Origin: a virus | Lineage: Duplodnaviria; Heunggongvirae; Uroviricota; Caudoviricetes | DNA: 20,129 nt | Direction: 5' to 3' (one strand) | Virus record (IMG/VR): IMGVR_UViG_2534681762_000006 | Shown here: piece after piece, positions 3,824-7,195 of the stretch | Layout: each line of letters starts with the position of its first letter | How positions within the stretch are numbered: position 1 is the stretch's first letter | The notes under the pieces: generated by a model | Told to the model about the DNA's origin: nothing | Databases searched by the model: none | What the model saw: only the letters and a program-made list of their open reading frames with translations | Position numbers and translations under genes: made by a program

Positions 3824-4639
3824 TCACCGTACAGTCGGTGATATTGCCTGCCCCCTGATTGCCTTCTGGAAAATCTTAAACTCCAGAGTGACGCTACCAC
3901 CACCACTAGGCATATCAATAACTGCACTGTAACTACCGGGAATGGCCCCTTTAGTTTCTCTGGATGCGATTAATACGCCGTTTTTGCGAACTTCAAAACC
4001 ATAACCCGTGTATCGCGTGCCTCCCGAGTTATTTCCGCTCCCCGGATCGTCATACGCTATACCGTTAAAAATAATGGGCGGAATAATAATCTGGCGGTCA
4101 AAGTTATGATCATCGCTGATGGTGACTGTAACCGTACCGTCTGGTGTTTCCGTGTTACCCCACGTACCGACTTTTTTCGGGAAGGCTTTTGATACAGCTT
4201 TAACGAAATCCCCTCTGACCTGGGTCGCCTCCAGCATGCCCTTAATCGTACAGTTCTGGTTAATCGTGACATTGTTGAGCGTTCCTGAGTTCGCATTCAC
4301 ACTGCCACTGATATCCGCATTTTTAGCGGTCAGCTTTCCGTCTGATGTCAGGGAAAATACCGGAGGACTGCCACCACTGGTAATGGTGGGGGCCGTCAGG
4401 CGCTTCAGGAACACGTCGTTCATGAATATCTGATTGCCCTGCGCCACAAACATCGGCGTTTCATTCCCGTTTGCCGGGTCAATAAATGCGATACGGTTAG
4501 CGGCAACCAGAAACTGACTCAGTTTGCCTTCCTCCGTGTCCTCCATGCTGAGGCCAATACCCGCGACATAATGTTTGCCGTCTTTGGTCTGCTCAATTTT
4601 GACAGCCCACATGGCATTCCACTTATCGTTGGCGTCCTT
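3824..4639 (-). CDS. J: host specificity protein J, C-terminal receptor-binding segment, lying downstream of an in-frame TGA
   Basis: Same reading frame as ORF 4640..7195. The codons after the TGA read [81 protein letters not shown], which matches the lambda J C-terminal region as I recall it. The last ~150 aa diverge from lambda. Confidence 0.85.
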
Positions 4640-7195
4640 TCACTCTTTCGAAAACTCCTCCAGTCTGCTGGCGTTATCCTCCGTCAGCTCGACTTTTTCC
4701 AGCAGCTCCTTGCCGAGATGGGATTCGGTTATCTTGCCTTTGAAAAAATCCAGGTAACCTTCCGCATCATCGCTCGCCCGACCGACGGCCTCCACGAATG
4801 CCGATTTGCCAACGGTGTTCACACTGCGGATATAAAAGTAATAATCATGGCCCGGTTTGATATTGATACTGGCGGCTATCCAGTACAGCGCCGTACCAAG
4901 ATAGCGGGCTGTGGTTTCAACCTGCCTGATATCGGTAATCCGCTTTTCCGAGAACCAGAACTCAAACTGTACCGTCGGGTCATAAACGGCAAGATGCGGC
5001 GTGGCGGTTATCTGAAAATAGCCCGGCGTCAGCTCAATCCGCGACGGCGCTGCCGGTGCGGCGATCCGGAACGATACCGATGCAGGATCGCCCTGCTGTC
5101 CCCATGCATTTACCGCCCGGACTGTCAGCCTGTAATTTCCCAGCGCCAGCTGCCTGAAGCGGTATGTGGTTTCCGTCGTCCGGGCCGTGCTGACCAGCCG
5201 CTCACTGCCGTCATCCGCTGTTACGGTCAGACGGAGCAGGAAGCTCACGCCCTTCACCACCTTCGGCGTGTCCCAGCGCGCCAGCACCTGATATTCCCCG
5301 CTGTCTGCGGTGACTTCGGCGGTCAGGTGCTGCACCGCTGGCGGCGTGACACCATTCACCGTGCCGCTCTGGTCGCCGTCAAAGTGCGCCCCGTTATCCA
5401 CGATGGCTTCTTTTTCCGGTACATGCTGCACGGCGGTGATGGCATACGTGCCGTCGTCGTTCTCACGGATACTCACGCAGCGGAACAGGCGCTGGCGCAG
5501 CGTCGGCAGCTTCAGCCCCCACACGCTGTATTCAGCAACGCCGTCAGGAACACGGCTCACTTTCACCTTCACGCCGTCGGTGACGGACTGAACCTCCACG
5601 CTGACCGGATTGCCACTTCCGTCAACCAGGCTTATCAGCGTGGTGCCGGAAGATGGCAGCGTGATTTCACGGTCGAGCGTCAGCGTCCGGGTCTGGCTGT
5701 TTACCGCCAGCACGCGCCCGCCGGTGCGGATACCGGCATAGTCATCATCGCAGATTTCAATGACATCCCCCGGTACATGGCGAAGCCCTTCCGCACCCAC
5801 GCTGAAGTCCACGGTCTGCGTTTCCAGCAGTTCCGTTTTAATCAGCCACAGCCCGGCGCGGTGCGCCTGCCCCCGGCTGGTACAGCCAAAGGCATCCATC
5901 TTCGTGACGTTACGACCGTAACGGGCAATGGCCTGCGTGTCCTCCACAAGCTCTGTCGCCGTCTCCCAGCCGTTATCCGGGTCAATCCAGTTCACCTCAA
6001 CGGCATTATGGCGGTCCTTCAGGGCGCTGAAGCTGTAGCGGAACGGCGCGCCATCATCCGGCATCACCACATTACTGCGGTTATAGGTCCACACCTTATC
6101 TGATGGTCGGTCCTGCACGAACGTCAGCGTCTGCCCGTTCCATACCGGCATACAGCGCATCGCCGAGCAGAAATCACTGAGAACATCCCACGCCTTACGC
6201 TGTGTGGTCAGCCAGGCATTACAGGTGATGCGCGGCTCCGTGCCGCCAAAACCGTCCGGCACCGACTGATCGCAATGCTGGCCGATGACATACAGCGCCC
6301 ATTTGTCCACATCCGCCGCACCAAGACGTTTCCCCATGCCGTAGCGCGGATGGGTCAGCATATCCCACAGACACCAGGCCATGTTGTTGCTGTATGCTGG
6401 CTTAAACGTTCCGTCCCAGATACCGCTGTATTGCCGCGTCTGCGGGTTATAGTTCGACGGCACCTGCAGAATGCGCCCGCGCAGATGATAATTACGGCTC
6501 ACCTGCTGGCTGCCGAACTGCTCCGAATCCACCTGCACGCCGACCAGTGCCGTGTTCGGGTAGCACTGTTTCACATCGATGATTTCGGTGTATGACGACC
6601 AGAGCGTTTTGTTCTGCAGCTGGTCTGTGGTGCTGTCCGGCGTCATCCTGCGCATCCGTATATTGAACGGGCGCGGCGGCAGGTTACCCACCACCACAGA
6701 GGCCAGATACTGCGAGGTGGTTTTGCCCTTAATGGTGATGTCTTTTTCCGTCACCCAGCCACCATTACGCTGGATCTGAACCAGCAGGCGGACTTCCGAC
6801 GGATTCCGGTCCCCCTTTGAGGTGGTTTCCACCAGTGCCTGCACGCCGAAGGTAAAGCGCAGACGGTCGATGTTTGCAGACGTAATGGTGCGGGTGATCG
6901 GCGTGTCATATTTCACTTCCGTACCCAGCACCGTCTCGGAGCCGGAGGATTCAAACCCCTCCGGCGGTGTCTGCTCCTGCTCACCGGCACGGAACACCAC
7001 CGTGACACCGGAGATGTTGGTATTCCCCTCAGTGTCCAGCACCGGCGTACTGTTCAGCAGCACGCTTTTTAATCCATCCACCGGACCTTCAACCGGCCCT
7101 TCGCTGATGGCATCGATCACACTCAGCAGCTGCGTGGACTTCAGGTTGTCCTTCGCTTCGCGCGGGGTATGCCCCTTACTGCTGCCTTTACCCAT
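4640..7195 (-). CDS. J: host specificity protein J (central tail fiber), N-terminal 851 codons, ending at an in-frame TGA (4640-4642)
   Basis: Starts [58 protein letters not shown], the lambda J N-terminus. Segments total about 1123 codons against 1132 in lambda. The stop falls where I recall a Trp in lambda J (EEFSKE-W-KDASDKWNAMW). Confidence 0.9.

Follow-up and report, generated by a model that had tools for sequence, protein, structure and literature searches.

The gene examined here has its closest described counterpart in gpJ (TipJ) of phages lambda and 434, and the prophage that carries it recalls the IS-riddled cryptic lambdoid prophages of STEC O26 and O111. As in those prophages, the gene order is that of lambda, IS66/ISCro1 elements are inserted in morphogenesis genes, and nonsense and frameshift pseudogenes are scattered along the sequence. 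The combination of lesions, in contrast, is specific to the present contig, and the junction of an IS element with the major-capsid gene E, a TGA codon in J and a 1-nt deletion in J are found in no complete genome. Compared with the gpJ of lambda and 434, the gene has the same domain order, but it differs in three ways: codon 852 is TGA, the frame shifts by −1 at codon 1110, and the match to the Ig_GpJ_C domain is shortened. Programmed UGA readthrough, of which the Qbeta coat/A1 readthrough protein is an example, offers another point of comparison. Both cases have a UGA in frame, an A as the next base and an open frame beyond it; in J, however, the stop is not conserved, no stimulatory structure accompanies it, and lesions affect the frame past the stop as well as the rest of the virion module.

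The window, that is, the whole 20,129 bp stretch of DNA that was analysed, is the entire contig AQEJ01000040.1 of assembly GCA_000355115.2 (WGS project AQEJ01), and belongs to the ETEC strain Escherichia coli ThroopD. This enterotoxigenic strain was obtained in Dallas, in 1975/76, from a case of cholera-like disease, and its genome is available as a draft sequence (PMC4309559). Since the 1970s the isolate has been maintained in laboratories. The contig holds a lambda-like prophage, with the minus-strand gene order FI-FII-Z-U-V-G-T-H-M-L-K-I-J-lom-stf matching that of lambda, so that J is placed as in a lambda-type tail cluster, preceded by K and I and followed by lom and stf.

The J gene (central tail fibre, host specificity) is of the phage 434 type and occupies positions 3783..7195 on the minus strand, as delimited by tblastn with the intact J of CP027312. 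This intact homologue has 1137 aa, and frames of about 1132-1137 codons are expected in the family. Nucleotide identity to phage 434 J is 97.6% over the full length, and lambda J can be aligned as well. In the part that precedes the TGA, Pfam recognises FNIII-A_GpJ, Phage-tail_3, Ig_J and Ig_J_second; Phage_Tail_Tip and Ig_GpJ_C lie wholly past it, and the two halves combined give the full domain set of phage 434 J in the same order. The C-terminal, post-stop part matches solved structures of lambda gpJ, such as 8IYK and 8XCJ. Domains and alignments thus bear out the original prediction that the gene is a lambda-type host-specificity J, truncated before its receptor-binding C-terminus. No single unbroken frame of the family length (~1132-1137 codons) is present, the frame being interrupted by the TGA at codon 852 and shifted by −1 at codon 1110. 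The gene is a pseudogene of the lambda-type gpJ/TipJ family, and not a working member of it. In GenBank it is split into EMW91543.1 (“phage tail family protein”, the 851-aa product) and EMW91542.1, a 262-aa “fibronectin type III family protein” at 3824-4612 on the minus strand, which begins at an internal Met. That EMW91542.1 stands as a separate entry is an artefact of annotation, due to the splitting of the pseudogene.

Reading of the minus-strand ORF 4640..7195 gave 851 codons, from 7195 to 4643, followed by TGA at 4642..4640, exactly as originally predicted. On the coding strand the surroundings of the stop read GAG TTT TCG AAA GAG TGA AAG GAC GCC AAC GAT AAG TGG. Past the TGA, the same frame stays open with J sequence for 271 further codons, up to the next stop at 3824-3826. 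The claim that some 270 codons follow in frame therefore stands as a description of the open frame; as a measure of the missing part of J it falls short, since an intact gene of 1137 codons would put about 285 codons after this site. In phage 434 J, Phage_Tail_Tip covers residues 845-972, and codon 852 is thus at the N-terminal edge of that domain.

The ancestral codon was sought, as the original prediction had proposed, by aligning the gene with lambda J and close prophage relatives. Codon 852 is TGG in all eight J genes of the nucleotide alignment (lambda, 434 and six E. coli prophages). The TGA at 4640..4642 (minus strand) hence replaces the codon of Trp852, and it does so by the single transition that had been suspected, G to A on the coding strand, or C to T at 4640 on the plus strand. 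The neighbourhood of the site is well conserved: between 4300 and 5000, phage 434 and strain ECCHD184 each differ from the window at position 4640 alone, and the 401 nt around the site are 99.5-99.8% identical to the best 40 listed matches in complete E. coli genomes. As nothing else separates the gene from relatives for several hundred bases, the stop does look very recent, as had been proposed.

In order to find the TGA allele elsewhere, 5,426 complete E. coli genomes were searched with a 55-mer centred on the variant, designed in such a way that every 28-nt seed had to include the variant base. No 28-mer with this base was found in them. Similarly, the exact 23-nt TGA pattern had no match in species-representative genomes, in IMG/VR or in JGI metagenomes, and the 851-aa product is present on a single contig (EMW91543.1, AQEJ01000040.1). 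Given its absence from these complete, representative, viral and metagenome sets, the TGA allele is private to the ThroopD assembly.

The original prediction had also held that no secondary lesion lies downstream of the stop, and had built its reading of the stop on this. This is contradicted by a private 1-nt deletion at codon 1110 (3863..3866, minus strand), where the coding strand has AA for AAA (TT for TTT on the plus strand), so that CAG AAA GGC becomes CAG AAG GCA and the frame is shifted. When the intact J of CP027312 was used as a tblastn query, frame −2 gave the match to its residues 1-1115, and frame −1 the match to residues 1109-1137. By this frameshift the receptor-binding domain loses its final 27 residues, in place of which 13 out-of-frame residues follow, and the Ig_GpJ_C match ends at position 103 of the 135 of the profile. 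No match to the deletion was found among the 5,426 complete genomes. From about 1000 to 4000 the window is 99.4-100% identical, per 500-nt bin, to strain 2013C-3181 (CP027312), and between 3400 and 4024 the deletion is the sole difference from it. A private missense change, P1057S, affects the receptor-binding region (4027..4027, minus strand; TCG versus CCA in CP027312). It is due to a C-to-T change at 4027 that is found in no aligned relative; the third-base difference of the same codon, at 4025, is common to other relatives. The last 900 nt of J thus hold three private changes: the TGA, the 1-nt deletion and P1057S.

J is not the only damaged gene of the prophage: three further essential ones, H, I and E, are broken as well. 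The tape-measure gene H (9600..12158, minus strand) has an in-frame TAG at 10302-10304 in place of TGG (Trp619). The context of this amber codon matches three complete genomes, with 55 identical nt in OkiPb01695 and partial matches in DS26-1 and ZYS9073, and in the two that were inspected the PGAP annotation of H reads “internal stop”. The prophages with the matching TAG otherwise differ from the present one by 1-10% per 500-nt bin. The TAG appears to be a pseudogene allele that either spreads by recombination or is recurrent. In the tail assembly gene I (7259..7827, minus strand), a run of six C has lost one, leaving C5 on the plus strand at 7546-7550. Among complete E. coli genomes, 17, of diverse host origin, have this C5 allele; two of them were checked and are annotated “frameshifted”. 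Either the run is a hotspot at which slippage recurs, or the allele is old and shared by descent. A common cause for the two Trp-to-stop changes, TGA in J and TAG in H, was considered and rejected: unrelated complete genomes also have the H allele and the J allele is private, so these are separate events.

An IS66-family element with three ORFs (216, 115 and 517 aa) and a 382-nt right-end repeat lies at 15573..18660 (plus strand), within the major-capsid gene E. The insertion is flanked by an 8-bp duplication, TCAGGATC, at 15565-15572 and 18661-18668, and the E::IS junction in the window reads TCAGGATC|GTAACCGTCTC. This junction was sought among complete genomes, as a way to a sister genome for codon 852, and no match was obtained. 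The element shares no more than about 94% identity with ISCro1. Unusually, its final 382 nt are tandemly repeated, at 17895-18280 and 18279-18660, and this repeat may be an artefact of short-read assembly. Between 18661 and 19398 (minus strand) lies an internal fragment of E, residues 88-333 of 341, with IS elements on both sides, as the gene is cut again by the terminal part of another IS66 element, ISCro1-like and inverted (19399..20129, minus strand), which runs off the contig. STEC genomes contain ISCro1 copies to which this second element is 99.7% identical. The contig stops within this element, which leaves the head genes upstream of E out of view. In all, the prophage has an amber codon in H, a frameshift in I, a nonsense codon and a frameshift in J, and an E gene cut by two IS66-family elements; with the J TGA included, this decaying lambda-like prophage has no fewer than six inactivating lesions.

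Two genes that follow J are intact. The lom gene (3113..3712, minus strand), encoding an Ail/Lom outer-membrane protein, is 100% identical to its CP027312 homologue, and the side tail-fibre gene (91..3048, minus strand; 986 aa) aligns over its full length at 99.4% identity and without gaps. That neither is damaged, in contrast to J, I, H and E, fits the retention, in decaying prophages, of accessory genes expressed in the lysogen. Farther upstream, G is unusually divergent, with ~91% nucleotide and 85% protein identity to all relatives examined. In lambda, a programmed −1 frameshift at the G/T overlap yields a G-T fusion; in the window, a GGGAAAG slippery heptamer is present at this overlap, at 12585-12591 on the minus strand.

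These results make it probable that the TGA is a genuine, recent and private nonsense mutation in a prophage that was already defective, and thus a case of ordinary gene decay. What counts against this is that both the TGA and the J deletion are known from the ThroopD draft assembly alone. Either lesion could therefore be an error of base-calling, consensus or assembly in a short-read draft, the more so as J-like genes are multi-copy in E. coli, with a median of three places per genome. If so, the true ThroopD codon would be TGG, and possibly the nearby 1-nt deletion would be spurious as well. The absence of the TGA from the 5,426 genomes and from the representative, viral and metagenome collections would agree with an error, as would the restriction of the 851-aa protein to one contig, flanks that are identical to those of relatives for hundreds of bases, and a contig with repeats at its borders and, within it, the peculiar tandem copy of one IS end. 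However, of the four point lesions that the contig carries, two, the H amber and the I frameshift, are confirmed in independent finished genomes. Because they recur there, these are real alleles, and the contig does carry real pseudogene alleles. Moreover, substitution errors are rare in a deep short-read consensus, and a collapse of several J copies would yield no TGA unless one of the copies had it. We therefore consider an error rather unlikely, and infer that the TGA is a real mutation.

If the TGA is real, it might still be decoded. UGA is the leakiest stop codon of E. coli, and Trp-tRNA competes with RF2 for it (PMC10570021). Near-cognate tRNA-Trp would thereby re-insert the wild-type residue at codon 852 and could produce some functionally relevant full-length J. 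The base after the stop is A, and the UGA-A context was reportedly found by Engelberg-Kulka in 1981 to favour suppression. Yet a readthrough product would still go out of frame at codon 1110, so that its receptor-binding domain would lack the end, heads and tails could not be built anyway with E, H and I broken, and the stop is conserved in no relative (TGG in 8/8, TGA in none of the 5,426 genomes). Nor was a significant RNA structure detected across the stop: for the 101 nt from 4660 to 4560 the z-score was −1.45, and 15 of 200 shuffled sequences folded at least as well. Functional readthrough is thus very improbable. In view of the J frameshift and of the H, I and E lesions, it is unneeded and would not rescue J, which disposes of the idea, part of the original prediction, that the stop is tolerated by low-level readthrough: neither a working J nor particles could be restored in this way. 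A variant, in which partial suppression by tRNA-Trp gives an 851-aa, hub-only J together with a near-full-length J of altered C-terminus, one of them put to some use by the host other than in particles, seems to us more far-fetched still. Least credible of all is a recoded UGA, for instance for selenocysteine, or a programmed stop giving two J isoforms. That the stop is UGA and that the frame beyond is open for 271 codons speaks for it, and nothing else does. TGG is ancestral in all aligned relatives and the TGA allele is unique; no stable hairpin (SECIS) follows the UGA, and the downstream frame is itself damaged. With a stop that is not conserved, recoding is effectively refuted. More generally, the marks of readthrough or recoding, namely a conserved stop, a stimulatory 3′ RNA structure and an intact downstream extension, are all absent here.

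Decay of J in a defective prophage would have proceeded as follows. With H, I and E disrupted, the prophage would already have been unable to make particles before J was hit. Nothing then selects for an intact J, because all three genes are disrupted, and private lesions, a nonsense codon, a 1-nt deletion and a missense change, would pile up in it. A G:C-to-A:T transition would have turned TGG (Trp852) into TGA, a plain loss of function. Translation would end after residue 851, so that the baseplate-hub domains would be kept and the tail-tip fibre and receptor-binding domain lost, with no special decoding at the UGA. A nonsense codon among a few neutral changes is unremarkable, since ~2.6% of the possible transitions in J create a stop, and the gene has 20 Trp codons. 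As to the order of events, we infer that the shared H and I lesions are the older ones, and that the private J lesions are younger. Whatever the state of J, the sequence predicts that heads and tails cannot be formed by this prophage.

Biologically, this is pseudogene decay of the ordinary sort, within a cryptic lambdoid prophage. Its importance is small and lies mostly in annotation, as EMW91543.1 and EMW91542.1 are the halves of one J pseudogene. For ThroopD, the entire tail and head module of this prophage would be non-functional, judging from its genes. The locus is also a small, clean case of stepwise prophage decay, in which the older lesions are shared, the younger ones are private, and lom, a lysogen-expressed gene, is intact.
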